Origin: Pseudomonas phage HPP-Temi
Strand: one strand, 5' to 3'
Length of the DNA: 64,000 nt
Sequence record: PP968062.1
The position numbers and the translations under genes are program-made. Below, piece after piece: positions 1-56,690 of the stretch (its first letter is position 1; every line of letters starts with the position of its first letter). A model generated the notes under the pieces. The model was not told the DNA's origin. It did no database searches and saw nothing but the letters and a program-made list of their open reading frames with translations.

Positions 1-2190
1 ATGGAACTTATTTTATTCCGCGATGATTGGGAGAAGTTCCCAACCGCGATTGCGGATACCAAAACATCAAATAAAACCTTTCTAAAATTAGCGGCCCTTT
101 ATCGGGACGAACTCAAAATAGCAAACTGGAAATTCATTCTCACATTGCTTCAACCAGATCTCCAGGGCGTAGACCCTTATGACCCAGATCTAGATGATGC
201 AACTAAAATGAAGATCGCTTTGGAATGTAAATACAACCCTTGGTATTACTTCCGTGAAGTTGCCCGTGTCCCTGCGACATCTGGTAACGTTCCGAACCCA
301 TTCCGTGCTAACCGTGGTAACATTGCACTTTTCTGGTGCTTCTTTAACCACCTAGACTTTGGTCTGCTGCAACCGCGTCAGACTGGTAAATCTGTTTCAA
401 CCGATATCTTGATGACAGGCATGATGTATATCTGGGGTGAGAACACCACCATCAACCTGATCACTAAAGATAACAAACTCAGAACGGCGAACATTGAACG
501 TCTAAAGGTAATGCGAGATCTGCTACCTGACTACATTCACTGGGCTAACCCGAACGACGTTGACAACAACGAACTAATGACTTGCATTCGTCTGGGCAAC
601 CGCTACAAGACTGCTGTAGGCCGTAATGATAAGATTGCAGCTGACAAACTCGGTCGTGGTCTTACTGTACCGATCATGCAGTTCGACGAATTTGCATACA
701 TTAACTTGATTGAGATCTCTCTCCCGGTAGCTCTGGCTTCCGGTTCCGCGGCTCGTGCCGAAGCTAAGCGTCAGGGTCAACCCTACGGTAACATCTTCAC
801 AACAACTGCTGGCAACATTACTACTCGTGACGGTGCATTTGCATACAAGTTCATGACTGGCGGTCATACTTGGACTGAAACGATGTTTGACCTTGCAAAC
901 CAACGCATGGCCGTACTAGTAATGGAGAAAGGATCTAAGGCAGATCAGAAGCCTATCATCTACGGGGCATTCAACCACCGTCAATTGGGACGGACAGACG
1001 AATGGCTATTCCAAGAACTTAAAGAATCTAGCTCGTTCGGTGAAATTGCTGACCGTGACTTCTTTAACATCTGGACTGTTGGTGGTGAAGGTTCTCCCCT
1101 GTCTCCGGAACATAAGAAGCAATTGAAGGCTTCTGAACGTGAACCTGTGTGGACTGAGATTACTAACGATGGTTACACTATTCGTTGGTACATCCCGAAA
1201 CATGAAGTAGAACAACGACTGGCCGAAGGTCGGTTCATGATGGGTATGGACCCCAGTGAATTGCTGGGCAAAGATAACGACGCCACTGGTATGGTTGTCT
1301 TTGATGTAGAGACTCACGAAGTAATAGCAGCCGGCTGCTATAACGAAACCTCCGTCCCTGTCATCGCTGCATTCATTGGTACGCTATTGATTCGTTACCC
1401 CACGATTACCTGGGTACCTGAGCGTAAGTCCATGGGTACTGCTCTGATTGACTTCGTGGTGATGCAACTACACAAAGCTGGTATTGACCCGTTCCGTCGG
1501 ATCTTTAACCGAATTGTGGATGAGCACACTGTACTTGAATCTGAGTTCCGTGATATTCAGACTCCGCTGTCTCAACGTCCTGCATCGTTCTACGATCGCT
1601 TCAAACGTTACTTCGGTTTCAACACTTCTGGTTCGGGTCGTTACTCTCGTAACAGTCTGTTCCTGGAAGCACTACCGAGCGCAATGGATTACGGTAGCCG
1701 TCGTATGGCTGACAAGAAACTCATTACAGAGCTTCTGGCATTGACCATTAAGAACGGACGTATTGACCACACTCGGGATAACCACGATGACATGGTAATC
1801 TCGATGCTGCTGGCTCACTGGGTTTGCATCCGTGGACAGAACCTGTCCTACTACGGTATCAACCCGGCTACGATCTTCTCTCGTGCTGTTACACGTGATG
1901 TCGAGCTAACTGCTCTTGAGAAATATCGTGAAGACAAAGAGAAGCAAAACAAAGGTGAGTTCGAAGATCTCATCGCTCAGCTTAAAGGTGAGACGAATCC
2001 ATTCGTTATCACTAAGCTTGAAATGCGTCTGCGTAATCTGTCTAAGAGTATCAACATGGAAGAAGCTACAGGTGTCGGTATTGACGCAATGCTGAAACAA
2101 GTCCGTGATGATCGTACTCGTCGAGTTCGTACTTCTCGCTTCCAGCAAGAACGTAGTTTCAGTAACGTAGGTTTCTACGGACGCCGATAG
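1..2190 (+). CDS. terL: terminase large subunit (T4 gp17-like ATPase-nuclease); N-terminus may extend beyond window start
   Basis: Walker A LLQPRQTGKS resembles T4 gp17 LSRQLGKT. Walker B-like VPIMQFDEFAYI resembles gp17 AMIYIEDCAFI. The C-terminal nuclease segment NHDDMVISMLLAHW nearly matches gp17 YHDDLVMSLVIFGW. Confidence 0.85.
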   Translation: MELILFRDDWEKFPTAIADTKTSNKTFLKLAALYRDELKIANWKFILTLLQPDLQGVDPYDPDLDDATKMKIALECKYNPWYYFREVARVPATSGNVPNPFRANRGNIALFWCFFNHLDFGLLQPRQTGKSVSTDILMTGMMYIWGENTTINLITKDNKLRTANIERLKVMRDLLPDYIHWANPNDVDNNELMTCIRLGNRYKTAVGRNDKIAADKLGRGLTVPIMQFDEFAYINLIEISLPVALASGSAARAEAKRQGQPYGNIFTTTAGNITTRDGAFAYKFMTGGHTWTETMFDLANQRMAVLVMEKGSKADQKPIIYGAFNHRQLGRTDEWLFQELKESSSFGEIADRDFFNIWTVGGEGSPLSPEHKKQLKASEREPVWTEITNDGYTIRWYIPKHEVEQRLAEGRFMMGMDPSELLGKDNDATGMVVFDVETHEVIAAGCYNETSVPVIAAFIGTLLIRYPTITWVPERKSMGTALIDFVVMQLHKAGIDPFRRIFNRIVDEHTVLESEFRDIQTPLSQRPASFYDRFKRYFGFNTSGSGRYSRNSLFLEALPSAMDYGSRRMADKKLITELLALTIKNGRIDHTRDNHDDMVISMLLAHWVCIRGQNLSYYGINPATIFSRAVTRDVELTALEKYREDKEKQNKGEFEDLIAQLKGETNPFVITKLEMRLRNLSKSINMEEATGVGIDAMLKQVRDDRTRRVRTSRFQQERSFSNVGFYGRR

Positions 2191-2201
2191 GCAACATAAA
2201 A

Positions 2202-2227
2202 GCCTTCCCCAACGGGAAGGCTTTATG
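2202..2227. terminator. hairpin gccttcccc-aacg-gggaaggc followed by TTTATG; convergent terminator between terL and the minus block
   Basis: GC stem with 4-nt loop and flanking T-tract, seen in sequence. Confidence 0.6.
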
Positions 2228-2230
2228 TCG

Positions 2231-2740
2231 TTAGTCTCGTTGACCTAAAGAACATTGCTGTTCAAGACGACGTTTCTCTTTTTTAACGTTCGGCTTGGTT
2301 GGACGAGCAATAATTCGGTAACCATCTACACCAACACGAATCAGACCACGAATGATCGGATTGACTTTGGATACTTTAAGAGCTTCATAGAAAATATGAT
2401 CGATCTCTTTCCGAGTGATCTTAACTTCCATAGCAGTTCCATTCACCATCTGGAGGATAGTGTAAGTTTCACAAAGCTTGTCATGTAGTGCAGCTGCTTG
2501 ACCATGCTTGCCTAACCGTGGAATCAACCAACGTACAGGACGAGGGATAGATGCACCATCGGTCAGGAAGCATTTGTTAACAATAGCAAACTTACCGGAG
2601 CCTTCACTTCCAATGTCGTATTGGAAGGTCTCCATAATTCGCCAATAGTCGTCACCGAGAATAGCCGATGCATCATCGTCATATTGGATAGACATCTTAG
2701 CGTTGAACTTAGTGTAGCTACTCATTACAATCTCCATCAA
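2231..2740 (-). CDS. DUF1353-like phage protein (TDGASIP motif)
   Basis: 169 aa; FLTDGASIPRPVRW motif typical of the DUF1353 family. Confidence 0.5.
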   Translation of the reverse strand: MMEIVMSSYTKFNAKMSIQYDDDASAILGDDYWRIMETFQYDIGSEGSGKFAIVNKCFLTDGASIPRPVRWLIPRLGKHGQAAALHDKLCETYTILQMVNGTAMEVKITRKEIDHIFYEALKVSKVNPIIRGLIRVGVDGYRIIARPTKPNVKKEKRRLEQQCSLGQRD

Positions 2741-9450: not shown

Positions 9451-9535
9451 GCCCGGTTGGTGAAATGGTAGTACACAAGAGACTTAAAATCTCTCGGCGA
9501 AAGCCGTGTCGGTTCGAGTCCGACACCGGGTACCA
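9451..9535 (+). tRNA. tRNA-Leu(UAA), type II with long variable arm, CCA encoded
   Basis: Cloverleaf read by hand: anticodon stem AGAGA/TCTCT, loop CTTAAAA, T-arm GTCGG-TTCGAGT-CCGAC, 3' end GGGTACCA. Confidence 0.8.
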
Positions 9536-9593
9536 ATTCAGATATAATGCCTTCCCTTGTGGAAGGTTTTATATTGTCATTAAGAGAGTAAAC

Positions 9594-9821
9594 ATGAATA
9601 CCGTTGCAATGTTAGTACTATCGATCCAAGTTGGTTTCTTTGGATTTACTACAACGAGCGAGTCCAAGATTGAATTCGAGAATAGAAGGCAGTGCATCTC
9701 TCATCTTGATATCCTAGAAAAGAAATACGGTCACCACGAGATCACACGAAATGAATCTACTCTCAAAGTAACAGACCACAGTAATCATGCGATTACCATT
9801 TTTAAATGTCCTACGAGGTGA
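9594..9821 (+). CDS. small secreted/membrane protein (75 aa)
   Basis: Internal Met of the track ORF 9465..9821, whose 5' part overlaps the tRNA. The N-terminus MNTVAMLVLSIQVGFFGF is hydrophobic. Confidence 0.4.
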   Translation: MNTVAMLVLSIQVGFFGFTTTSESKIEFENRRQCISHLDILEKKYGHHEITRNESTLKVTDHSNHAITIFKCPTR

Positions 9822-9825
9822 CGAA

Positions 9826-10113
9826 ATGGAACACCAAGAACAAGTAAGTCTTATTAAGTCTCTCCTGCAATCTGCTTACGATCTAACATTCAATCCTGAA
9901 AAGCGTGGTGGTGCAGTAGGTCCTGATTGGAAGAAGCTAACTGAAGAAGTTGTACTCTTCCCGAATGGATTGGATATTACCATCAATGCGATCACCCGTG
10001 CTATTAAATGGGAACTCATCGATGGACGTGTTGCCAACATCACCTACGTTGAAGCCATGTTCTTTAATAAAGGACTCAAGGCTATCAAAGACTACCTGAA
10101 CGGAACGGAGTAA
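9826..10113 (+). CDS. hypothetical protein
   Basis: ATG preceded by a gaggtga SD. The track ORF begins at 9787. Confidence 0.55.
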   Translation: MEHQEQVSLIKSLLQSAYDLTFNPEKRGGAVGPDWKKLTEEVVLFPNGLDITINAITRAIKWELIDGRVANITYVEAMFFNKGLKAIKDYLNGTE

Positions 10114-10117
10114 AACA

Positions 10118-10450
10118 ATGTCTGAACTTGCACCTATCCAACATGAAGTATATACCGCTTTCTGTAGCCCTGCTCTTATGAATAAGACTACCACTGAAGC
10201 GTTCACTCATCTGCACAAACAGTTCCCTCAGATCAAACATTGCGTCAAAAGAAAGACAGGTGAGCACGAGCTACAATTCGTCTTCATCTTCCATGGCGAC
10301 GTGAATGATTTGATTGTCGTGAGAAAGACTACGCCAATGCCTACGCTGAGTAACTTTAATAACGAAGAAGTTGTTCTGAAGGGAGACGCTTTGAAAGAGG
10401 TGCTTGAGAAGGTCGGTCGTGGATCGATATCTCGGACAAAAAGAAAATAG
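10118..10450 (+). CDS. hypothetical protein
   Basis: 110 aa with an SD ggag 7 nt upstream. Confidence 0.6.
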   Translation: MSELAPIQHEVYTAFCSPALMNKTTTEAFTHLHKQFPQIKHCVKRKTGEHELQFVFIFHGDVNDLIVVRKTTPMPTLSNFNNEEVVLKGDALKEVLEKVGRGSISRTKRK

Positions 10451-10482
10451 TACTATTTGTGTAATAGTATGTAACACACAAT

Positions 10483-10558
10483 TCCGTGATAGCTCAGCAG
10501 GTAGAGCAGCGCACTGTTAATGCGTTTGTCCCATGTTCGATCCATGGTCGCGGAGCCA
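10483..10558 (+). tRNA. tRNA-Asn(GUU)
   Basis: TCCGTGATAGCTCAGCAGGTAGAGCA..., anticodon loop CTGTTAA, T-arm GTTCGATCC, 3' end GGAGCCA. Confidence 0.85.
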
Positions 10559-10717
10559 AACGTAAGATCGAGAAGCCCAAAGCTCGATCGAAAGGGACTG
10601 AGAGACTGCGGGTAGCTCAGTATAATCTAACGCCGCCCAATTCAAGAGAGTAGCTTCGGCTACTCTTTTATGCCGTGATGTTATACTCCAATATCGGAGT
10701 TATAGGAGATACTGAAA

Positions 10718-11374
10718 ATGTTGAATAGATCAAAAGGCCTGTTTTTAGATGATAGTAACCTTATGGAAGTTAAGGTTATAAATGCGGTAGGGCATAGAAC
10801 CCATGGTGGTCCTCATATAGAGGATGGATCAAAATATCATAGAACACTTGACTCGTATGAGGTGTTAGCTAAAGGTTATATGTTACGTGAGGGAGTACTG
10901 TCACTAGGTATAAATACATCTGCACACGATATTGAGTATGATGGATTTGGATTTATTAATGTATTTTTAATAGAAGATCCATTACCTCACGTTGAAGCAT
11001 ATAAAGGAAAACATGTTATTCTATCACCTGTACCTAAACAGTTGGCCGATAAAATAATTAAGGATGATAGAAATGTTGGACGATTAACAAATTTAGGAAT
11101 GTTAGATGATTTACTATACCAAATTGATACACGTGTAACTGAAGCATTAATCTATCTAACTGAAAACATGGCACCAGCCAGTCCCGAATATAGGGCAATT
11201 CCACCAGTTCTAACCTTTGACATTTTTGTAGATAATAAATATGTTTCGATATATGCGTTCGAATCAGCTATTAAAGAAAAGTATGGGGATACGATAACAT
11301 TCCGTATTATAGAACCTAATGAACCTCCGACACCAGGAGAGTATTTAAGGATTGAGTTAACTATAACGAAATAG
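10718..11374 (+). CDS. hypothetical protein in a low-GC island
   Basis: 218-aa ORF with an SD aggaga. Local GC is about 35% against about 47% elsewhere. Confidence 0.65.
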   Translation: MLNRSKGLFLDDSNLMEVKVINAVGHRTHGGPHIEDGSKYHRTLDSYEVLAKGYMLREGVLSLGINTSAHDIEYDGFGFINVFLIEDPLPHVEAYKGKHVILSPVPKQLADKIIKDDRNVGRLTNLGMLDDLLYQIDTRVTEALIYLTENMAPASPEYRAIPPVLTFDIFVDNKYVSIYAFESAIKEKYGDTITFRIIEPNEPPTPGEYLRIELTITK

Positions 11375-11442
11375 CAATATATCCTACAATTTATTCAAAC
11401 AGATTATCTTATGAACTAAATTGTTTACTTGAGAGCACACTC

Positions 11443-13290
11443 ATGTTTGAATTATTGTTATCAGCTGCTGGGCAAGCTAAGCCAGTGGAAATGATACCGT
11501 ATAACCAACCAACATTGTTTGGACAACTGGATGTTGGATTGGTTGGATCGGTACCCTATTTCAGAAATGGTTTATTAAATATTAATAGTGGTGCCCCATC
11601 AAGAAGTACAACTGATAATAACATCAGAATTTTTGATAGCACTGGTACTCAAATCAGTAAAACAGCTGTCCAAAATAGTTATTCACTTTGTCATACGGCG
11701 GGTGTATTTGTTCCAACATCCGATAGACTTTACATGTTCGGTGGGCGTCGTGGCGCTTCTTGGACACAAAACGTCATCACGATGATCAATCCAACTGTAC
11801 CTAATGATAATCTTATTAGTAATCAGTTGATGAATACATCCACTTATAACAGTATCGGCGATTGGGATGGCGGTGAATTTATTTGGGTACTGGAACATGC
11901 AACAGATCTTTTGATTCGCTATAGACTATCGAATAACGTTCGAGAAGTAATGAGTGCCCGGTGCCCTGTTATTCTATCTGGAGCGTATGCATTCTGCCAT
12001 AAAGGGAATTTCTATGTGATGGGTGGATGGAAGAACATCTCTGGCAGTTGGGTTGTTAACCAAGATGTTTATAAATACACCGTTGCTATTAATACATGGA
12101 CATTGTACCATTCATACTCCACAGACTACCACGGTGGTCATCAAGGTGGTAAGTACTGGAACGGGACTTTTAACTACACTATCGTTAAAGATGGTAAGAT
12201 TCATTGTGTTCGTTATTATATCGCCGAAAAACAATTTGTTGTTACTGAGACGAATATTGGTGAGGTCCATGGGACATCAGTCGCATTAAATCCATCGAAT
12301 GGCGATCTGTATCTGATCGGTGGTTCGGACATTGTTATCGATGACGCCCTTTTTAACACCCCTGAAAGAACGAAAGCAGCTATCTATAAATTCACTATTC
12401 CTATCCCTCCAAGTAAAACTGAATGGGAAGTAATGGCAAACGCACCTTATGATAGTCGAGGTTCCACTGCGGTTGTAATAGATGATGAACTGTATATGTT
12501 CGGCGGGTATACAAGTACAGGTGCATATAGAGGCGCGTTTAATAAATATAATCCTGAGACTAATACATGGAACGGTCTATTCACTGGATCTGGTTTAAGT
12601 CCGAGTGCCCGTGCTAATATGTGTGCAGCTGCAAATGATACACATATGTACCTATTCAGTGGATCTAACCAATCAGCAGATTTCTGGCGTTATAACGTAG
12701 CGACCAATGATTGGACGGCTATTACACCCGCTTCTCCGGGTTCATCTAATCCAGTATTTAGAACACAAGCTACGATGGTTCATTATAATGGTAAGCTCTA
12801 TTTGCTTGGTGGGAATAATGAATCTGACGCGTTGTTCGTCTACGATATTGCATCTAACATGTGGTCAAAACGAGTTGCGCAAGGTGGCATCCAACGATCT
12901 TCACATAGAGCGGTTGTTGTCGGCGAGTACATGTATGTCTATGGTGGATTTGTAAATGGTTCGCAATCCGGTCGATTTGATCGAATGAATATGAATACAT
13001 TTGCATGGGAGTCTCTACCGACTACCGATGGTCCCGGTGTTAACAGTTACGGTGTAATGCTGACTAACGATGAAGAAATTATATACATTGGCGGCGCTGA
13101 CGAAGACAAACGTAGAAAAGCCAATGCGTATAATATCCAATCGAGAACTTGGCGTAAACTACCAGAACTACCAAACGGTGTGAATGATGGCTATGGTGGA
13201 TTTATTAATGGCACAGCATATGTTGGCGGTGGTCTAACTGGAGCCAATAATAATACAATTACAGACAAGTTCTATCGTCTTGGAATTTAA
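11443..13290 (+). CDS. Kelch-repeat beta-propeller protein
   Basis: 615 aa with at least 8 repeats carrying the hhY(M/L)hGG signature (LYMFGG, FYVMGG, LYLIGG, LYMFGG, MYLFSG, LYLLGG, MYVYGG, IYIGG) and W/Y-rich spacing. Confidence 0.8.
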   Translation: MFELLLSAAGQAKPVEMIPYNQPTLFGQLDVGLVGSVPYFRNGLLNINSGAPSRSTTDNNIRIFDSTGTQISKTAVQNSYSLCHTAGVFVPTSDRLYMFGGRRGASWTQNVITMINPTVPNDNLISNQLMNTSTYNSIGDWDGGEFIWVLEHATDLLIRYRLSNNVREVMSARCPVILSGAYAFCHKGNFYVMGGWKNISGSWVVNQDVYKYTVAINTWTLYHSYSTDYHGGHQGGKYWNGTFNYTIVKDGKIHCVRYYIAEKQFVVTETNIGEVHGTSVALNPSNGDLYLIGGSDIVIDDALFNTPERTKAAIYKFTIPIPPSKTEWEVMANAPYDSRGSTAVVIDDELYMFGGYTSTGAYRGAFNKYNPETNTWNGLFTGSGLSPSARANMCAAANDTHMYLFSGSNQSADFWRYNVATNDWTAITPASPGSSNPVFRTQATMVHYNGKLYLLGGNNESDALFVYDIASNMWSKRVAQGGIQRSSHRAVVVGEYMYVYGGFVNGSQSGRFDRMNMNTFAWESLPTTDGPGVNSYGVMLTNDEEIIYIGGADEDKRRKANAYNIQSRTWRKLPELPNGVNDGYGGFINGTAYVGGGLTGANNNTITDKFYRLGI

Positions 13291-13334
13291 TAAATACTGG
13301 TATGGTAATACTATGTAAGACTATACCAGATTTC

Positions 13335-13423
13335 GGAGAGATAGGAAAATTGGTAACCCCAGCTGACTGTAAATCAGCCGTCCGTATCGGGCATTACTGG
13401 TTCGAGTCCAGTCCTCTCCACCA
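13335..13423 (+). tRNA. tRNA-Tyr(GUA), type II, CCA encoded
   Basis: Anticodon stem-loop AGCTGA-CTGTAAA-TCAGC, long variable arm, T-arm GGTTCGAGTCC, acceptor GGAGAG.../...CTCTCCACCA. Confidence 0.65.
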
Positions 13424-13435
13424 ATGCGTCATAGT

Positions 13436-13458
13436 GCTCTCCCTCCGGGGAGAGCTTT
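13436..13458 (+). terminator. hairpin gctctccctccggggagagc followed by TTTATG (the ATG is the start codon of the next gene)
   Basis: GC stem-loop seen in sequence. Confidence 0.5.
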
Positions 13459-14022
13459 ATGCCAATTAACACAAAAGGAAATAACATGTCAGCATTAAGT
13501 TTGATTCAACGATGGGCGCCGGAGGCACCGAGGATTCTCCTCCATGCTAATGACAAGCCCTCCACTACAAAGATGGTTCTCGATAAAGATCACGGGGAAT
13601 ACATGAAGTTTAACGACTTCCTGATCCTCCTTAAGAACGGTATCTTTATTGAAGCTACGAAAGATCTTCATGAAACGCTGCTAGATGGTAGAGCACAACA
13701 AGACCTCATGGCTCGACTGGGTCGTATGGGTTATGAAGACTTCGATCAAGTCATGCGTGTATTGGAAGAACAACGTAGTACTGTTCTCAAAGAGAAAGAG
13801 TATGAAATCTGGCAAGAGGGCCATCAAGCATCTGGTGATTCCAGTAAAGCTCATCTCGTTGGTAAGGCTACAGGTTACTCTTTCCTCGATGCTGTAGACA
13901 ACTACATGAAGACAGCCAGTAAAGATACGAAAGACTGTTTCCGTGCTGAACTGGATGCAGCCTATATCTGGGGTTGCCGTCTGTATGACAATGAAATCGA
14001 TGCACGTAAATCTTTCGGGTGA
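13459..14022 (+). CDS. hypothetical protein
   Basis: 187-aa ORF. Confidence 0.65.
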   Translation: MPINTKGNNMSALSLIQRWAPEAPRILLHANDKPSTTKMVLDKDHGEYMKFNDFLILLKNGIFIEATKDLHETLLDGRAQQDLMARLGRMGYEDFDQVMRVLEEQRSTVLKEKEYEIWQEGHQASGDSSKAHLVGKATGYSFLDAVDNYMKTASKDTKDCFRAELDAAYIWGCRLYDNEIDARKSFG

Positions 14023-14025
14023 TCT

Positions 14026-14460
14026 ATGATTCCTAAACTTTCTGTTGCTGATATCCGTAGTAAACAAACTCCTGAACAACTGGCCAATAACCGGGAGAAA
14101 ATCCTGGAAGCAGTCGAGCGTTACCATGCTGCTCAACGAGAGCTTGAAACCTACTGTGAACGTAATGGGTTAGAAGTACCTATCCTAGTCTGTAACTCCA
14201 TGGCAGTTAACAAAGGTATTCCTTCTCGTCTCTCTATGCACGTAATGGTTCAACTCGGTATTGGTGATTATACCAGTCGAATGAACATGAACGCTATCCA
14301 ACTCAGTGATATGATCGAACGTGATCTAACCGATCTTTGGAACAAGCATTATGAGAATGAGTGGATTGATTGGAAACCTTCCGTTAATACATTCCTCTGC
14401 AATGGCCAATATATCATCCAAGTCTTCTTGGGTCGCGAAAAGATCATGGAGTTGAAATGA
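14026..14460 (+). CDS. hypothetical protein
   Basis: 144-aa ORF starting 3 nt after the previous stop. Confidence 0.65.
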   Translation: MIPKLSVADIRSKQTPEQLANNREKILEAVERYHAAQRELETYCERNGLEVPILVCNSMAVNKGIPSRLSMHVMVQLGIGDYTSRMNMNAIQLSDMIERDLTDLWNKHYENEWIDWKPSVNTFLCNGQYIIQVFLGREKIMELK

Positions 14461-14606
14461 CTACTGAAGTCAAAAAAGAAAAGCGACATAGAGGGCGACA
14501 AGCCCTCAATGCAGTTGGTGAAATCATCGGTGCTATATTCGAAGGCATCTGGTGGATCCTGACCTGTCCGTTCCGTTTAATCGGTGCACTCTGTACACTC
14601 GATTAA
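14457..14606 (+). CDS. small membrane protein (49 aa)
   Basis: ATGA overlap with the upstream stop. The protein is basic at the N-terminus and hydrophobic at the C-terminus (IIGAIFEGIWWILTCPFRLIGALC). It is below the ORF-track size cutoff. Confidence 0.4.
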   Translation: MTTEVKKEKRHRGRQALNAVGEIIGAIFEGIWWILTCPFRLIGALCTLD

Positions 14607-14956
14607 AAAGAATACTTGGTTGGTTACAGTATGTAACGAACAAAGTTACTTCATCGAAATGCTGCCCGTTGAAACATCTCACGCTAGGTCCAGCAGACTG
14701 TATCGTTTCGATGTGACCTTTATAGCTCCCGGAAACCAAAGGCTAATTGTGGCAAGCCAATGCTTGAGGGAAGTCGATTGGGCCGACCCTAGAGAAAGGT
14801 GTCTCTTCAGTTCCACTGACTGTACCTAACGAGGGATATCAAGATCAATAAGAGACTGGTTTTGGTATTCGACATACAGCTCTCCGTTAAGGAGAGTTTT
14901 ATGCCGTTTTATACTGGGTACTATAACAGTATGTTAAAGGTCGTAAAGAGGTACAC

Positions 14957-15316
14957 ATGACTACATTCATGCCTAGTCACGCAGAAGCTGATATTGATGT
15001 TGCTTCAAGAAACAAAATGCTGTCTGAACTGCTTATAGAAGAGTTCCCTAATACCGAAGGAATGTCCACCGCAGCAGCTGAAGACTATCTACGTTCTAAG
15101 GTCGTAGATAAATTCAACATTAACCATCCGGAATACACAGCTCACGTTAGTTACGATTGTACAGCTCGTGGCGATTTCATCACAGCTTGGGTAACCCGTA
15201 AGCTCGCCTTAATCAAATTGAAAGTTACATCAGAGGAACCAAAATGTTCGAAAACGCAGAATTCAAAGATGATGGCCTTGGGGCACTCATTACGGAAATT
15301 TTTGGTCGGAACCTGA
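14957..15316 (+). CDS. hypothetical protein
   Basis: 119-aa ORF whose 3' end overlaps the next ORF. Confidence 0.45.
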   Translation: MTTFMPSHAEADIDVASRNKMLSELLIEEFPNTEGMSTAAAEDYLRSKVVDKFNINHPEYTAHVSYDCTARGDFITAWVTRKLALIKLKVTSEEPKCSKTQNSKMMALGHSLRKFLVGT

Positions 15317-15459
15317 ACCAGAAGTTCCAAGAATGGTACAGCCCACTGATGGCTGATCCGACTATAGAAAAGGTTCCAGTCTGCCGAGGTGGGCAGGTTG
15401 TTAAAGAACCAGCTAACTTCGTAGCTCTTGTAAAAGAGTGGTTAGCGAATCAAGAATAA
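15244..15459 (+). CDS. hypothetical protein
   Basis: 71 aa with a good SD gaggaa. Confidence 0.5.
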   Translation: MFENAEFKDDGLGALITEIFGRNLNQKFQEWYSPLMADPTIEKVPVCRGGQVVKEPANFVALVKEWLANQE

Positions 15460-15557
15460 GTTTACTGAGAAGTAAACCATATGTAAGAGTTAATGTCGGT
15501 GGTATCCCTTAACTTAACGGTCGGATGCGAAAAGTGCATCGGTGTTAACTCTTCATT

Positions 15558-15633
15558 GGGAGCATAGGCGAATTGGTATAGCCAGCTGGTTTAGGTCCAG
15601 CCGTCGTAAGACACTGTGGGTTCGAGTCCCTCT
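15558..15633 (+). tRNA. tRNA-Leu(UAG), type II, CCA encoded
   Basis: Acceptor GGGAGCA/TGCTCCT, anticodon stem GCTGG/CCAGC with loop TTTAGGT, long variable arm, T-loop TTCGAGT. Confidence 0.7.
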
Positions 15634-15857
15634 GCTCCTACCATTTACTAGATTCTTGTGTAATACTATACGAGAATATTCAATGACTCTGCATGTTCTC
15701 CGGGTATATCCCATAATTGCTATTCTACTCCTCCCTTAAAAGGATAGCATTTAAAGGTTGCGATGACTAATCGTAATGCAGGGTGATTAATAGTGCCGAC
15801 TATAGCGAGGGTCGGGTCTACACTTAACTGGTGGATTCCAGTACTCAATTCAAATTC

Positions 15858-15886
15858 AGCCGTTATAGCTCAGCAGGTAGAGCAAC
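15858..15886 (+). pseudogene. tRNA 5'-half fragment (paralog of tRNA-Asn acceptor and D-arm) truncated by the HNH gene
   Basis: GCCGTTATAGCTCAGCAGGTAGAGCA is nearly identical to the 5' half of the tRNA-Asn at 10483. No anticodon or T-arm follows; instead the HNH ORF begins. Confidence 0.55.
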
Positions 15887-15890
15887 TAAA

Positions 15891-16298
15891 ATGAGAATAG
15901 ATCTTGATTTTCCGTTTAACCAAGATTGGACTCATGGATATCTTAACAGTCAAACAACAGGTCGTCGGATTGTACATCTCCATGATGGTTCAGGCAAAAC
16001 GAAGACAGTTAGTTATGCAAGATATCTAGTCTCTGTGGAGCTAGAACGTCATCTTGAGAAAGATGAAGAAGTGGATCACGTTGACGATAATTTCGAAAAC
16101 GATAAACTACTTAATCTCCAAATTTTAACACCCCGGCAGAACAGAGCAAAGCAAGGTCCTCTAAATAGAGTAGACGTTGTACATGGTTCTTTAACAGCGT
16201 ACCGTTATTGTAAATGTGATATTTGCAAACTCGGTAAAAGTCTGTGGTCTAAGGGTGACAAAATTGGATACGAAAAAAATCTGGCCAACGTAGCATAG
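15891..16298 (+). CDS. HNH homing endonuclease
   Basis: HNH core EVDHVDDNFENDKLLNLQILTPRQNRAK. The gene sits inside the tRNA cluster, and its 3' end overlaps the next tRNA by about 15 nt. Confidence 0.75.
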   Translation: MRIDLDFPFNQDWTHGYLNSQTTGRRIVHLHDGSGKTKTVSYARYLVSVELERHLEKDEEVDHVDDNFENDKLLNLQILTPRQNRAKQGPLNRVDVVHGSLTAYRYCKCDICKLGKSLWSKGDKIGYEKNLANVA

Positions 16299-16370
16299 CG
16301 GTCGACTGCAATGGATTTGTAATCCATCGACTAACGTCCATCGTGAGTTCGAATCTCACCGTTGGCTCCA
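16284..16370 (+). tRNA. tRNA with anticodon UGU (Thr) but an unusually long variable arm, CCA encoded
   Basis: Acceptor GCCAACG/CGTTGGC, anticodon stem ATGGA/TCCAT with loop TTTGTAA, T-arm GTGAG-TTCGAAT-CTCAC, roughly 15-nt variable region. Confidence 0.5.
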
Positions 16371-16376
16371 GTAATA

Positions 16377-16461
16377 CCCAGTGTGGCAGAGTGGTTTAAT
16401 GCACCAGCGAAAAGCTGGCGACAAGTCCTACGAGTCCATAGGTTCGAATCCTATCACTGGC
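16377..16461 (+). tRNA. tRNA-like gene with Ser-type D-loop but a 5-nt anticodon loop (atypical or pseudo-tRNA)
   Basis: D-arm GGCAGAGTGGTTTAATGC, T-arm ATAGG-TTCGAAT-CCTAT and 3' CACTGGCCCA are recognisable. The anticodon arm CCAGC-GAAAA-GCTGG has only 5 loop nt. Confidence 0.35.
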
Positions 16462-16609
16462 CCAGTTTTTGAAATTAGTTGTAAGATGGTAAGGTACAGC
16501 CCGAATCACATTAAAGGAGCCGCCCGGTGATTCATGATGGGTGCATGGGTACAAGTCGAGTGATAAAACGAGTCGCCTTTCACTCCTGCTAATTTCAAAA
16601 AGCTATTCA

Positions 16610-16687
16610 GGTTCCATAGTCGAGTTGGTTAAGACGCTTGCCTGTCACGCAAGAGATCGTCGGGTTCGAGTCCCACTGGAATCGCCA
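16610..16687 (+). tRNA. tRNA-Asp(GUC)
   Basis: Acceptor GGTTCCA/TGGAATC, anticodon stem CTTGC/GCAAG with loop CTGTCAC, T-arm GGGTTCGAGTCCC, 3' end GCCA. It resembles E. coli tRNA-Asp. Confidence 0.85.
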
Positions 16688-21663: not shown

Positions 21664-21680
21664 AAAAAAATAAGGCATAA

Positions 21681-21708
21681 GCCCTCTCCCAAAGGAGAGG
21701 GCTATATG
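21681..21708. terminator. bidirectional terminator gccctctcccaaaggagagggc at the plus/minus block junction
   Basis: GC hairpin with an A-tract on one side (taaaaaaaaataagg) and TATATG on the other. Confidence 0.65.
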
Positions 21709-21711
21709 TCG

Positions 21712-22245
21712 TTACACCATTTCAATTACATCGTAGCAACGATGTTTACCTTGACCATTCCACCAGGCGAACTTACCAGAACGGTTGATGCGATAACCTT
21801 CGATCTCGGTCAACGGATTGACCGCCAGGTAAGTAGCGAACTGGGGATTGTCATTGTAGATTGGAAAACGATCAACAAGAAGCTTGGAGAATGGGAGGAT
21901 ATCCCGCATCGACTTATACAGCGGTGCAGTGATGACACGGTTGTATTCAGTCAGTATGCGATTGACCTCAATGAATGCAGGATCTTTTTCATCGATCAGC
22001 CATGGCGTTTCACCTTCATTTAGAAGGAGTTGTTCGCCGTAGATCGGTATTGCGATTTCATGGTCAGCTACGATAGCAAGACCACCTTCGTTACCAGTTA
22101 CTTCAGTGTGAACGATATCCCCGGTAGCATTACGTCTTTTAACCTGCCAGGTCATACCAAGAAGCTTTGCGGCATGGACCATACGTTCAACGAAAGTTTT
22201 GAAGGTGAAGAGTTCTTTTGCAATAGCGATTTCACGTTGGGACAT
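21712..22245 (-). CDS. hypothetical protein
   Basis: Start taken at an internal Met with an aaggaaa SD. The track ORF extends to 22296. Confidence 0.6.
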   Translation of the reverse strand: MSQREIAIAKELFTFKTFVERMVHAAKLLGMTWQVKRRNATGDIVHTEVTGNEGGLAIVADHEIAIPIYGEQLLLNEGETPWLIDEKDPAFIEVNRILTEYNRVITAPLYKSMRDILPFSKLLVDRFPIYNDNPQFATYLAVNPLTEIEGYRINRSGKFAWWNGQGKHRCYDVIEMV

Positions 22246-22393: not shown

Positions 22394-23071
22394 TTACCTA
22401 TTTACGATTGGAACTGGTTGAGGTTTGTAGTTGACAGCTATCTTCCTTATCGCCTTACGAACGATCATCTGACGTACTCGATCACTCAGATTGATGTCGC
22501 GAGTGAGTACACCCGACTTAGCATTCCAATGATCGAAGCGACAACCCAGGATAGGGTAATGTGCTTGAGCCATTACCATGCATTCCAGTGGGTTGAATGC
22601 ATCACTAGCCGAAGTGAACACATTGTTCAGATGTTCTACCGCTTCACCACACCCGAAAATGATCGGCTTACGAGCAGGAGTGGAATAGTAGTTACTAAGG
22701 AACATGTCATGCGTCGATTGGAACACATGGAGAACATCGTCTTCATCAATGACAATGTATTCCGCATTGGGTGACAGTAGATGTTGGAAGTTCTTCGCCG
22801 TCTCGGCAATACTGTGGATATCATCACCGGTTTCCAAGAAGTTCAACCAGCAATGTCGATATTCGGTATCTCCCACCATAGTGAAGGCTTTTACTTTACG
22901 ACCCCAGACCTTTGCCTCCCAGTTACTCTCGGATGCAAGATAGATCTTGGAATGATCCAACTCAACGTAGTACGGTTTAGGTTTACCGTTCTCGTCCGTG
23001 ATATCGCTTTGGGTAATCGTAGTGACACGATCCACCAGCAAATCTTTACCATCCCAAACAACAAGCGTCAT
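22394..23071 (-). CDS. hypothetical protein
   Basis: 225-aa ORF. Confidence 0.65.
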   Translation of the reverse strand: MTLVVWDGKDLLVDRVTTITQSDITDENGKPKPYYVELDHSKIYLASESNWEAKVWGRKVKAFTMVGDTEYRHCWLNFLETGDDIHSIAETAKNFQHLLSPNAEYIVIDEDDVLHVFQSTHDMFLSNYYSTPARKPIIFGCGEAVEHLNNVFTSASDAFNPLECMVMAQAHYPILGCRFDHWNAKSGVLTRDINLSDRVRQMIVRKAIRKIAVNYKPQPVPIVNR

Positions 23072-23079
23072 ATTAAATT

Positions 23080-23497
23080 TTCCTGTTTTCAGTGCAAGAC
23101 GGAATAAAGCCCGCTCCTATTGGAGCGGGCTATTCGTTAGATCACCTCACTGGAAAGCCGGCCAGCTAGGTCGCCGAGGAGGTCAGCAACCAATCCAGTT
23201 AAGGTAACGCCACTCGGGGATACCCCTCTCAATCGGAGGTAGTAGCCGTCGTAACTTCAGATATAAAGACGGCCAAGTCAATATACCTGCTTCGGCTTGA
23301 TCCTTTGGCATGGATCGCTGTTAGTCTCTCCGAACTTATGCGGAGAGAGCCCACTTACACCGAAAGCTCGTGGGAATAAGGTGAGGTCACTGCGGCACCC
23401 TAATATGGCGACGGGGAGCCTTAGGGGAGATGATCCGGGTGACCTCTGTTCTGTTGGGACATTTGTCCTCGTATATCATTACATGCCAGGTATTCTT
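23080..23497. ncRNA. putative structured non-coding RNA or regulatory region of about 400 nt (strand undetermined)
   Basis: No credible ORF is present; the plus-strand ORF 23297..23980 overlaps a real minus-strand gene. The region is GC-rich with many nested and long-range complementarities (listed in the findings). Confidence 0.4.
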
Positions 23498-24028
23498 TTA
23501 CGTGAGCTTTACTTCCACGTTGACCGATTCGATTCCCAGGCTGTTACGTTTGGTCCGACCACGGGCCAGCAGATAACGAGACCAGGTTTCACCTTGGACA
23601 CGATCGAACTTGAAGAAAATGTGCTGAGTGATCATCTTGCTCAAATCAGCAATCTCTTTCGAGACCATATCGAAGAACAGGTTCTTGTCCATAACAGAAG
23701 CATCGTAATGCTTGAGCTGGACACGACAGTACTGGGAGTTTACCTCGTCGTAGAACTCGACCTCGGGTTCAGGTTCAAAATAATGGACCTTGTTACCCTT
23801 GAACTCGATACCATGAAGGATGACACCGATGTCGTCGTTATGGAAGAAGCGGTCTTTCACAGCACGGTTGTACTCAACAACCATTTTGTCCAGATGGATG
23901 CCACTTACCACTTCTTTGGTAGTGAAGAGGTAGCGACCATTGGGATCGACATACTGTTCACGTGCCCACAGGCAGCATAGACCGGTCGGAATGATTTCAG
24001 CGGGGATACGTAGATCACTGAGCTGCAT
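23498..24028 (-). CDS. hypothetical protein
   Basis: Start at internal Met 22 with an SD aaggaa. The track ORF runs to 24091. Confidence 0.6.
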   Translation of the reverse strand: MQLSDLRIPAEIIPTGLCCLWAREQYVDPNGRYLFTTKEVVSGIHLDKMVVEYNRAVKDRFFHNDDIGVILHGIEFKGNKVHYFEPEPEVEFYDEVNSQYCRVQLKHYDASVMDKNLFFDMVSKEIADLSKMITQHIFFKFDRVQGETWSRYLLARGRTKRNSLGIESVNVEVKLT

Positions 24029-24482
24029 CGAGTTGTTCCTTCTTTGCATGAATGGATTTGGTGATGATGACGCGTCGTTCTTTTGCTGCATCGGACATTA
24101 TCGTTATTTGTTCTTGCATCTGGGTGAACAACAATAGTTCCAGCATGGTGATCAACATGTGCTCTATCCAGAGACGAACACATATTTTGTTCATGGGGGC
24201 ATCATAACGAAGCGGTTGAACCACTTTAGCCAGAGCTCCGGTAAGAGGGCAGGTGAAGCAGATGTGCAGGTTCTCACTGTCACTATCTTCAGCCCAATGA
24301 ACATCTTCCCCTTCTCCGTGAACCATGTTGGTTACATGAACCACGGGTTGATGCTCAAAGGCTTCCGGACGAGGTGTAACACCTTTCTCAACACACTGGT
24401 CAAGATAGATGTCACGAATTACAGCGGAGAGTTCTGCCGCTTCGAGAGACGGCATAAAAGGAAATTTGAGTGTTACCGACAT
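24015..24482 (-). CDS. hypothetical protein
   Basis: Start at internal Met with an SD aggga. The track ORF runs to 24560. Confidence 0.55.
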   Translation of the reverse strand: MSVTLKFPFMPSLEAAELSAVIRDIYLDQCVEKGVTPRPEAFEHQPVVHVTNMVHGEGEDVHWAEDSDSENLHICFTCPLTGALAKVVQPLRYDAPMNKICVRLWIEHMLITMLELLLFTQMQEQITIMSDAAKERRVIITKSIHAKKEQLDAAQ

Positions 24483-24710: not shown

Positions 24711-25133
24711 CTAAACGATAACCTCGCGCGGAGGTGGTTCAACTTTAGTCCAATCCAAGGTTAGAGGAGTAGCGATCTCTTCCCTCATTTTGAACTCGAC
24801 GATGGTTCGTGGCCCGAAATGTTTAATTCCGAGTACATACCCTTCGATAATGATTTCGTACTGCCGACACAACTTACGAATGTAAAGTTCTATCTCGGTT
24901 TCAGTTCGAGGATCCTCAGGAGCAGGGCGATGCTGATGATCCCAGAATATGCAGAACTCTAGCTTTTGCCAGTTACTGAATTCCGGGTTGTAAGAAAACT
25001 GATGCAGGTGAGCTTGTTCATACTCTTCCCCCACGTAAAACAGCAAACTATCGGTGGGTTCCCTAGTCAACTCACTGAAGTCGACTTTTCGCCCACCACG
25101 GGTGAGATCAACGACAATGAGTTGAGAAGACAT
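24711..25133 (-). CDS. hypothetical protein
   Basis: 140-aa ORF. Confidence 0.6.
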   Translation of the reverse strand: MSSQLIVVDLTRGGRKVDFSELTREPTDSLLFYVGEEYEQAHLHQFSYNPEFSNWQKLEFCIFWDHQHRPAPEDPRTETEIELYIRKLCRQYEIIIEGYVLGIKHFGPRTIVEFKMREEIATPLTLDWTKVEPPPREVIV

Positions 25134-25834
25134 CAGGCGCTCCGTCTGTTATCGGTCAGAGAGCGAATCACTCGTCCGTCCACCTCGTTACGAGTTTTGT
25201 TACGGGTACGTTCAACCACACGAAAGACATTAACATGGTCAGCATCGACTTCATAGTTGGCGAACAGTTCACCGAAGTTGTTGGTCAGAGACTCAAGAAT
25301 CAGTTTCTTCGCATCTTCTTCGTTTATGTAGTGATACAGGATCACGCCACGATGATACAGGAACAGCGGGTAGTCCTGGCCGTTGATCTTAACTTCAGCG
25401 GCAAAGCCACCGTACGACATGGTGTCCGAGTTGATATCTTCACGGTACACATCCAGCTGCACATTGTTGATGGTGTGCATTTGAATCATGTCATTACCTC
25501 GACCACCAAAGAAGGTGGGACGCTTACGACCAGTAACCACATCTTGGATAGATTCCATCAGACGTGATACATCGGTGACGATCTCAATTACATCACACAA
25601 CTTGTTGATGGCTTCGAGGAAGCGAGCGTTCACTTCATCGATTTCGAAACGTGTCCACGGACGGGTTTCATGATTGAGGATGTTGATCCCGAACCATGCA
25701 TAACCGTTGTTATGTTTTACCTTAACGCACAGGTGAGGTACATCATCCAGGCCGGACTGATGGTTCAGCGTGTAATCACTGATGCGCTTCAGGACCAGTT
25801 GTACGAATGGGAGATTGATGATTTTGGTCGACAT
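25133..25834 (-). CDS. hypothetical protein
   Basis: 233-aa ORF. Confidence 0.6.
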   Translation of the reverse strand: MSTKIINLPFVQLVLKRISDYTLNHQSGLDDVPHLCVKVKHNNGYAWFGINILNHETRPWTRFEIDEVNARFLEAINKLCDVIEIVTDVSRLMESIQDVVTGRKRPTFFGGRGNDMIQMHTINNVQLDVYREDINSDTMSYGGFAAEVKINGQDYPLFLYHRGVILYHYINEEDAKKLILESLTNNFGELFANYEVDADHVNVFRVVERTRNKTRNEVDGRVIRSLTDNRRSA

Positions 25835-56579: not shown

Positions 56580-56663
56580 TGCTGCCTCCTATTGACAGGT
56601 TGATGATCACTTACATGATGTAGATCTAAGATAATTTTTAACAAAAAGAAAAACGATAAAAGT

Positions 56664-56690
56664 CCCTCTCCCGAAGGAGAGGGCTTTATA
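56664..56690. terminator. hairpin ccctctcccgaaggagaggg followed by CTTTATAT
   Basis: GC stem-loop seen in sequence. Confidence 0.6.

Follow-up and report, generated by a model that had tools for sequence, protein, structure and literature searches.

What, if anything, is encoded between two neighboring minus-strand genes of Pseudomonas phage HPP-Temi? In a 64,000-nucleotide (nt) stretch of this phage's DNA (PP968062.1), referred to here as the window, the open reading frames (ORFs) 23498..24091 and 22394..23071 are separated by a 426-nt non-coding gap (23072..23497), which a first-pass annotation, made from the sequence without database searches, had described as GC-rich, highly structured and devoid of any plausible ORF, and had proposed to specify a large structured RNA. 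We find that the gap holds a genuine structured non-coding RNA (ncRNA) gene of ~369 nt, spanning 23103..23471 on the minus strand, which we read as an expanded ortholog of the 120-nt RNA that phage phiKZ transcribes from promoter P130 to terminator T119, in a long, multi-domain form that was previously undescribed.

A conserved RNA gene on the minus strand

The initial description of the gap was borne out by its composition. Stop codons are abundant in all three sense frames, insertions and deletions among relatives have lengths that are not multiples of three, and the only long ORF that reaches into the gap (23297..23980, plus strand) does overlap a minus-strand gene, as had been pointed out. 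GC content is 0.537 in 23103..23471 compared with 0.46 window-wide, and equally GC-rich 369-nt segments make up 0.3%. The minus-strand RNA folds at -158.1 kcal/mol (z = -5.55), with none of 100 shuffles folding as well, and the plus-strand RNA gives z = -2.90.

The core of the RNA is domain 1 (23383..23446, minus strand), a 64-nt long hairpin composed of P1, P2, P3 and P3b, in which P1 (GAGGTCAC/GTGACCTC) is kept in other phages by compensatory changes. Three of its segments are invariant: AUCUC(C/U)C, which takes in an internal loop and the beginning of P3; G(G/A)UGC, on its 3' side; and CCCGUC, the apical loop. Conserved single strands lie on either side of the domain (CAACAGAACA at 23447-23456 and ACCUUAUU at 23375-23382). 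A covariance model of domain 1, termed R1, was trained on five sequences (the window, two Pawinskivirus variants, PhiPA3 and phiKZ), four of them distinct, in which 100% of cells are paired and 9 pairs are changed on both sides. R1 was scanned against the 64 kb window, ~25 loci of 7-15 kb and positions 1-50 kb of phiKZ, and found at most one copy in each. It scores 111.8 bits at 23375..23462 of the window, which is itself among the training sequences, and has no second match anywhere in the 64 kb. Other family members were reached by synteny with a homolog of phiKZ gp287, which in the window lies upstream on the strand of the RNA (25133..25834, minus strand). One copy of R1 was present in each of RVTF4, Psa21, D6 and Viktualia, in 17 of the 20 chimallivirus loci of IMG/VR that were gathered via the gp287 homolog (including 201phi2-1), and in a metagenomic relative, the contig L038. 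Altogether, R1 places the RNA in 24 further loci of Pseudomonas chimalliviruses, always on the same strand and downstream of the gp287 homolog. Across 18 distinct sequences of domain 1, 95.4% of cells are paired (33-50% in slid controls), both sides have changed in 17 of the 20 pairs, and there are 98 compensatory cells, so that the covariation in related phages that had been suggested as a check on the structured RNA is indeed there. Moreover, 19 G.U pairs on the minus strand would be A.C on the opposite strand, and the minus strand is therefore the functional one.

Two resemblances within domain 1 were considered and set aside. The CCCGUC loop has the sequence of positions 1402-1407 of 16S rRNA; this likeness to the decoding site was treated as chance, only 6 nt being invariant. 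A resemblance to a T-box (UAGGGUGCC) was rejected in the light of no Rfam T-box match, and the stretch belongs to helix P3/P2.

The RNA is bounded at both ends by transcription signals of phiKZ type. The upstream promoter block (UAAAAGAAUACCUGGCAUGUAAUGAUAUAC, 23471..23500, minus strand) overlaps the stop codon of the preceding gene, and GAATACCTGGCATGTAATGATATAC within the window aligns base by base with P130, a middle promoter of phiKZ, pairing GAATAC-N13-TATAC with the AAATAC-N13-TATGT of P130, whose transcription start site (TSS) is at 263172. By this alignment, the window RNA would start at ~23470/23471. The first-pass annotation had placed the region between early genes, but P130, its phiKZ counterpart, is of the middle class. 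The block AAnAATAC...GTAATnnTATA/G stands ahead of the RNA in 18 lineages. At the other end lies an intrinsic terminator (23101..23131, minus strand; AGCCCGCUCC-AAUA-GGAGCGGGCU, then UUAUUCC), which puts the likely 3' end at ~23103. The first-pass annotation had seen a terminator hairpin flanking the region; the hairpin is real (23108..23131), but rather than a mere flank it forms the 3' end of the minus-strand RNA itself. A generic terminator scan made no call at this hairpin, which bears the phiKZ-type signature of a stem followed by UUUAU(U/G)CCGU. The sequence of the hairpin is different in every lineage and the UUUAU(U/G)CCGU tail is constant, with 10-45 nt separating the terminator from the start codon of the next gene in every lineage. 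Further copies of phiKZ-type terminators, with a GC stem and CTTTAT, were seen as weak local matches at 56660-56689 (plus strand) and 21679-21714 of the window, which is consistent with a genome-wide terminator motif of the kind described for phiKZ and 201phi2-1.

The phiKZ transcript and the distribution of short and long forms

By blastn, part of the window RNA matches the 166-nt gap between gp288 and gp289 of phiKZ (E = 1e-4), where a single long hairpin, sharing the internal loops of domain 1, is followed directly by a terminator. Transcription of this phiKZ locus has been mapped: the TSS P130 at 263172 is classed as a middle promoter and the terminator T119 is at 263292 (Putzeys et al. 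2024, Microlife uqae002; bioRxiv 10.1101/2023.10.13.562163). The 120-nt unit from P130 to T119, TU198, is listed in the supplement of that study as a "5'UTR-derived" ncRNA candidate of PHIKZ289, a table entry only, without structure, family or function; the units from P128, P129 and P130 all end at T119, after domain 1, and the longest unit from P130 takes in PHIKZ289 (Putzeys et al., uqae002). The window RNA occupies the same position, 1-3 kb downstream of the gp287 homolog, with which it shares its strand, and in the leader of the operon with the gp289 homolog, and it combines a homologous domain 1 with a middle-type promoter upstream and a UUUAU(U/G)CCGU-tailed terminator downstream. Covariation, minus-strand G.U pairs, conserved promoter and terminator, and the mapped transcript of the phiKZ homolog together substantiate the earlier proposal of a large structured RNA, in its broader version of another phage ncRNA or a long regulatory leader.

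Members of the family come in two forms. The short form (~120 nt) consists of domain 1 and the terminator, and is found in phiKZ, RVTF4, Psa21, D6 and ~10 IMG/VR loci. The long form (370-480 nt) adds to domain 1 a 5'-terminal hairpin (P0), a domain 2 that holds P5 and P6, a middle region marked by the motif GAAGUUA, and a three-way junction (X/Y/E), and occurs in the window, Pawinskivirus, PhiPA3, Viktualia, 201phi2-1 and two uncultivated lineages (L030 and L032). We found no description of the long form in the literature. The close relatives in Pawinskivirus (PS119XW, PA1C, HHBS36_1, BRkr, phiHQ and LBG22; seven records) have the same gap of ~429 nt, and nucleotide identity between the window and these phages is ~90% over the whole gap, 74-76% in each flanking gene, 97-98% in the 5' 260 nt of the RNA and 71-73% in the 3' three-way junction. 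Evolution of the 5' 260 nt is thus far slower than that of the neighboring genes, suggesting that strong selection acts on some function. In PhiPA3 (Miltoncavirus), the gap in the same place is 416 nt long, with a 5' part that is 78% identical to the window; this phage retains the RNA despite an unrelated upstream gene (gp354) and a downstream protein that is only 34.5% identical. In the 201phi2-1 group, ~90 extra nt lie between P0 and domain 1, and an nhmmer profile of 201phi2-1-type long RNAs matches the window at 23457..23101, full-length and colinear (E = 3e-6). In 201phi2-1 itself (NC_010821), the locus is at ~287,075-287,535 (plus strand), and the published ONT-cappable-seq study of that phage, which selected units shorter than 250 bp, would have passed over the RNA. 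Scanning IMG/VR and metagenome contigs for exact sequence blocks returned only PhiPA3 itself or nothing.

The contig L038 (Logan SRR8512233, 30.3 kb) presents a different arrangement, in which domain 1 is followed by ~200 nt of unrelated AT-rich sequence and then by the terminator (1979-2300, plus strand); its gp289-like protein is 59% identical and the GAAGUUA motif is still there. This RNA may represent a third variant, and the AT-rich replacement indicates that the extension is evolutionarily labile and that domain 1 is the core. In several public genomes, coding sequences (CDSs) have been annotated over the RNA, namely the short HHBS36_1 CDS0035 (L001 3763-3888, minus strand) and Viktualia CDS0139 and CDS0140 (L008 1586-1867 and 1947-2036, plus strand), as well as an N-terminal extension of 201phi2-1 gp425 (L035 1916-1980, plus strand). 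Since they are not shared between lineages, these annotations are probably spurious.

The genes on either side offer few clues of their own. The upstream gene (23498..24091, minus strand) is 197 residues long as listed and 176 as annotated in relatives; its TAA stop codon, located inside the promoter block, is conserved in relatives, and a homology search found its homologs confined to seven Pawinskivirus-like records. The downstream gene (22394..23071, minus strand; 225 residues) belongs to the phiKZ gp289 family, has a Shine-Dalgarno sequence (AGGA), and starts at an ATG (23071) ~30 nt past the terminator. By tblastn, its product is 77-79% identical to Pawinskivirus counterparts, 34.5% to PhiPA3 gp355 and 29% to Viktualia CDS0143. 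Neither flanking protein had a sequence match in Pfam, PHROGs, NCBIfam or the PDB, with only 2 close homologs found, and the AlphaFold model of the gp289-family protein was unusable (pLDDT, the predicted local distance difference test score, of 37). The first gene downstream of the RNA varies by lineage; a gp289 homolog lies 0-2 genes downstream in Pawinskivirus, PhiPA3, phiKZ, RVTF4, Psa21, D6, Viktualia and L038, and none was detectable in 201phi2-1.

Architecture of the long form

The long form opens with P0 (GGAC-AAAU-GUCC, 23457..23468, minus strand), a hairpin that is present in every long form in differing sequence, its stems reading GGAA/UUCC, GGACA/UGUUC, GGAGC/GCUCC and GGAGU/GCUCC across lineages. 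Domain 2 (23288..23374, minus strand) is multi-branched, with a closing helix (UUUCGGU/GCCGAAG) around P5 (TCTCTCCG/CGGAGAGA, 23325-23348) and P6 (GATCC/GGATC, 23299-23316). When each lineage was folded separately, all six long-form lineages independently yielded this closing helix, with two or three hairpins inside it. The sequences of P5 and P6 change by lineage through compensatory changes that leave their complementarity in place; the closing helix has almost no covariation support, because its strands are nearly invariant. The stem S1 (CCCAC/GUGGG) becomes CCCUC/GAGGG in PhiPA3, this one compensatory change being its support, and in the structural model S1 would form a pseudoknot with the closing helix of domain 2.

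In the middle region (23212..23287, minus strand), structure is partly resolved and folding is inconsistent across lineages. The region contains the invariant GAAGUUA (23252-23258), found in all long forms, along with two local helices, GCCGUC/GACGGC and AGGUA/UACCU, and a GGGG-UAU-CCCC hairpin (23216-23226). Read from sequence, the PhiPA3 helix AUGUC/GACGU is the counterpart of CCGUC/GACGG in the window.

The 3' three-way junction (23140..23208, minus strand) consists of a closing helix X (GUUACCUUA-A-CUGGA / UCCAG-UGAGGUGAU), a hairpin Y (23169-23191) and a hairpin E (23156-23167). The inner part of X changes from CUGGA/UCCAG to CCAGA/UCUGG, UUCCU/AGGAA, CUGAC/GUCAG and CUGGU/ACCAG across lineages. 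Between the window and Pawinskivirus, which differ by 27% here, 96.6% of the junction's cells are nevertheless paired (19-53% in slid controls), mostly through changes between G-C or A-U and G.U; the shuffle control for the junction, with 4 sequences only, was not significant (81/500). Hairpin E reads AGCU-GGCC-GGCU in the window and NNNU-GGCC-ANNN in every long form, with covarying stems (AGCU/GGCU, AGCU/AGCU, CACU/AGUG). More speculatively, its self-complementary GGCC loop could serve as a kissing or dimerization site. The 3' strand of X (23140-23149 on the plus strand, UGAGGUGAUC on the minus strand) contains, in this phage only, GAGGUGAUC, which matches the complement of the 16S rRNA 3' end perfectly. 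As neither Pawinskivirus (AAGGUAAUC) nor PhiPA3 retains it, this complementarity is probably coincidental.

In total, the helices of P0, P5, P6, X, Y, E and the terminator have been re-made in other sequence in up to seven lineages. The long-form helices were compiled by folding each lineage and listing the strands by hand; their 100% pairing is therefore true by construction, and only the control with swapped partners (65%) is informative. When all long forms were aligned with MAFFT, RNAalifold gave a meaningless structure, a failure that we attribute to misalignment of hairpins that differ wholly in sequence. Several complementary pairs had been listed in the first-pass annotation, and they did not all fare alike: P1, P5 and P6 are upheld by compensatory changes in other phages and S1 by the single change in PhiPA3, whereas the small hairpin GGGGATACCCC is kept among close relatives only, the AAGCCGG/CGGCTT pairing is not kept in relatives, and the complementarity of GATCACCTCA...TGAGGTGA is more readily accounted for by the helix that closes the 3' three-way junction.

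Possible modes of action and known RNA classes

How such an RNA might act is a matter on which we hold a graded view. In the proposed mechanism, the phage's non-virion RNA polymerase would transcribe the RNA in the middle phase, and most transcripts would end at the terminator, yielding a stable RNA that is protected by hairpins at both ends, with a minority of read-through in which the RNA would be the 5' leader of the downstream gp289-family operon. A phage or host protein would recognize the unpaired bases that are invariant in domain 1 (AUCUC, UG and CCCGUC), forming a small ribonucleoprotein (RNP) or making the RNA a decoy, and the domains of the long form would be lineage-specific accessory modules. 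Taken as one statement, that this is an RNA gene of phiKZ type whose product acts in trans, is recognized by protein as an RNP or decoy, and also insulates the downstream operon, we judge this account to be somewhat more probable than its opposite. Several points weigh against it. The TSS and 3' end of the window RNA and of the other long forms are set by homology, the transcript having been mapped only in phiKZ; the flanking proteins carry no recognizable RNA-binding domain; the middle region and the proposed pseudoknot have no covariation support; and the 97% identity of the 5' part may partly reflect recent exchange between related phages. In addition, the position of a gp289-family gene 0-2 genes downstream in most lineages makes a cis-regulatory role conceivable.

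In its strict version, that role would be played by a purely cis-acting leader (an attenuator, riboswitch or put-like element) that senses a metabolite, a phage protein or the polymerase and sets the read-through into the gp289-family operon, with the short RNA as a by-product. The order of promoter, structured RNA, terminator, Shine-Dalgarno sequence and gene is what such a leader would show, as are the short distance from terminator to start codon in every lineage and the inclusion of PHIKZ289 in the longest phiKZ unit from P130. The gene downstream has no recognizable promoter of its own between the terminator and its start codon, and must therefore be read through the RNA element; a gp289 homolog nearby in eight named lineages points the same way. 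Yet in phiKZ, RVTF4, Psa21 and D6, short forms only, the duplex energy between the left arm of the terminator and the upstream RNA equals that of shuffles, terminator stems vary freely and end in what is a generic phiKZ terminator tail, and the first downstream gene changes from lineage to lineage, with 201phi2-1 lacking a detectable gp289 homolog. No known aptamer class matched, and long forms of 370-480 nt far exceed known aptamers; the phiKZ units from P128, P129 and P130 stop at T119 past domain 1, which argues against strong put-like antitermination. The missing antiterminator pairing in the four short forms and the varying first downstream gene make a classical riboswitch unlikely, and for a purely cis-acting leader as a whole the chances seem to us rather low, if still appreciable. 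A base-pairing regulatory small RNA (sRNA) is improbable. It would pair with phage or host mRNAs through the GAAC before P1, the CCCGUC loop and AUCUCC, possibly with Hfq bound to an A/U-rich linker and the terminator U-tail; the short forms do have a suitable layout (5' single strand, hairpin, the A/U-rich linker ACCUAUUUAUA, whose counterpart in the window is UAACGAAU, and a U-tailed terminator), and loop and linker nucleotides are invariant, but the conserved motifs are only 5-7 nt long, and seed pairing would not need the ~250-350 nt of additional conserved structure in the long forms.

A self-splicing intron, an intron relic or some other ribozyme had been among the identities first proposed, and group I introns are indeed present in phiKZ-like phages (gp55, gp56, gp72, gp179 and gp180 of phiKZ); the multi-domain fold with a possible pseudoknot would also suit one. 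However, the element interrupts no gene. The downstream ORF is complete and aligns from residue 1 with its homologs, which share its N-terminus, and in Viktualia no gap separates the homolog from the gene before it; the upstream ORF ends at a conserved stop codon of its own. As both flanking ORFs are complete, independent genes, an intron is excluded, and with an element that is bounded by promoter and terminator and matches no intron or ribozyme family, including Rfam group I and II, even at E<=10, we regard this whole class of explanation as very improbable. Scarcely credible, finally, is a DNA-level element (an origin of replication, or a site for packaging or partition) or a protein gene that is small or frameshifted. 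The short CDSs annotated over the RNA in public genomes would speak for the latter, but they are not shared between lineages, and the sense frames hold stops and non-triplet indels; as for a DNA site, substitutions keep base pairs, many of them G.U that would be A.C on the other strand, and no iterons or tandem repeats were among the features seen, in agreement with the first-pass view that a protein-binding origin fits the locus less well.

A bolder version of the trans-acting account would have the long form constitute a new class of large (370-480 nt), multi-domain RNA of nucleus-forming Pseudomonas jumbo phages, built around the 64-nt core and acting in trans as an RNP subunit, or as a catalytic or self-assembling RNA, rather than as a mere leader. 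We consider this possible, if on balance doubtful; if true, the GGCC loop could mediate dimerization, and an RNA component would be added to the biology of the phage nucleus. Nucleus-forming jumbo phages have been studied almost wholly via their proteins, and the region described here defines an RNA family with a universal core. With covariation on par with established Rfam families and a transcript mapped in the model phage phiKZ, this family is a candidate addition to Rfam, and its three- to four-fold expanded version is present in PhiPA3, 201phi2-1 and PA1C-like phages, which are laboratory models. The RNA is a genetically tractable target (antisense oligomers, Cas13a, deletion) for studying the roles of structured RNA in these phages, and its recognition as an RNA gene corrects spurious CDS annotations in several public genomes.

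Comparison with known RNA families did not bear out the specific identities that had been suggested (ribozyme, intron relic, 6S-like, GOLLD/ROOL-like). Rfam 15 searched with the whole window at the gathering score returned only tRNAs elsewhere; 800 nt searched at E<=10 gave only terminator-hairpin look-alikes at the locus, 131 nt at E<=10 nothing relevant, and four relatives at E<=1 no match. The family covariance models of GOLLD, ROOL, HEARO, OLE, raiA, 6S and RNase P found no match, and ARAGORN no transfer-messenger RNA. A near-match to the hairpin ribozyme was at chance level (14.7 bits against a threshold of 65 bits). An apparent mimicry of 5S rRNA (GAAGU..ACGACG, CCGAU and GGGGUNUCCCC) was also dismissed, as local alignment to Escherichia coli 5S rRNA was at shuffle level in five lineages. 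Regarding the tRNAs, the window has a cluster of seven (9451-16687), in which two adjoining 87-nt genes at 16284-16463 (plus strand), called tRNA-Thr(TGT) and tRNA-Phe(AAA), carry long variable-region insertions that are unusual for Thr and Phe identities, and the AAA anticodon is odd.

With GOLLD, ROOL, HEARO, OLE and raiA, the long form nevertheless shares its size class, a covarying multi-domain fold, a location in phage DNA within a few kb of tRNA genes, and the lack of a known function, and differs in matching none of their models, in being limited to Pseudomonas chimalliviruses and in the existence of a 120-nt minimal form. Like phage group I introns, it is a GC-rich structured insert of a few hundred nt between ORFs of a phiKZ-like genome; unlike them, it has its own promoter and terminator and leaves genes uninterrupted, with no Rfam group I match. 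The put RNAs of HK022 and related RNAs of processive antitermination are likewise promoter-proximal, folded, and placed before terminators in a phage operon, whereas phiKZ domain-1 transcripts still stop at the next terminator, the long forms are much larger, and the sequences are unrelated. Riboswitch and attenuator leaders and the sRNAs derived from them have the same succession of promoter, folded RNA, terminator, Shine-Dalgarno sequence and gene, in keeping with the short transcript mapped in phiKZ, and differ in the antiterminator pairing (not detected in the four short forms), the aptamer (no match) and the constancy of the first downstream gene. The phiKZ P130-T119 RNA itself has the same syntenic slot, promoter block, domain-1 hairpin with invariant loops and type of terminator, and consists of domain 1 and terminator only, whereas the window RNA, three times longer, extends this shared plan by P0 at the 5' end, the multi-branch domain 2, the middle region and the three-way junction.

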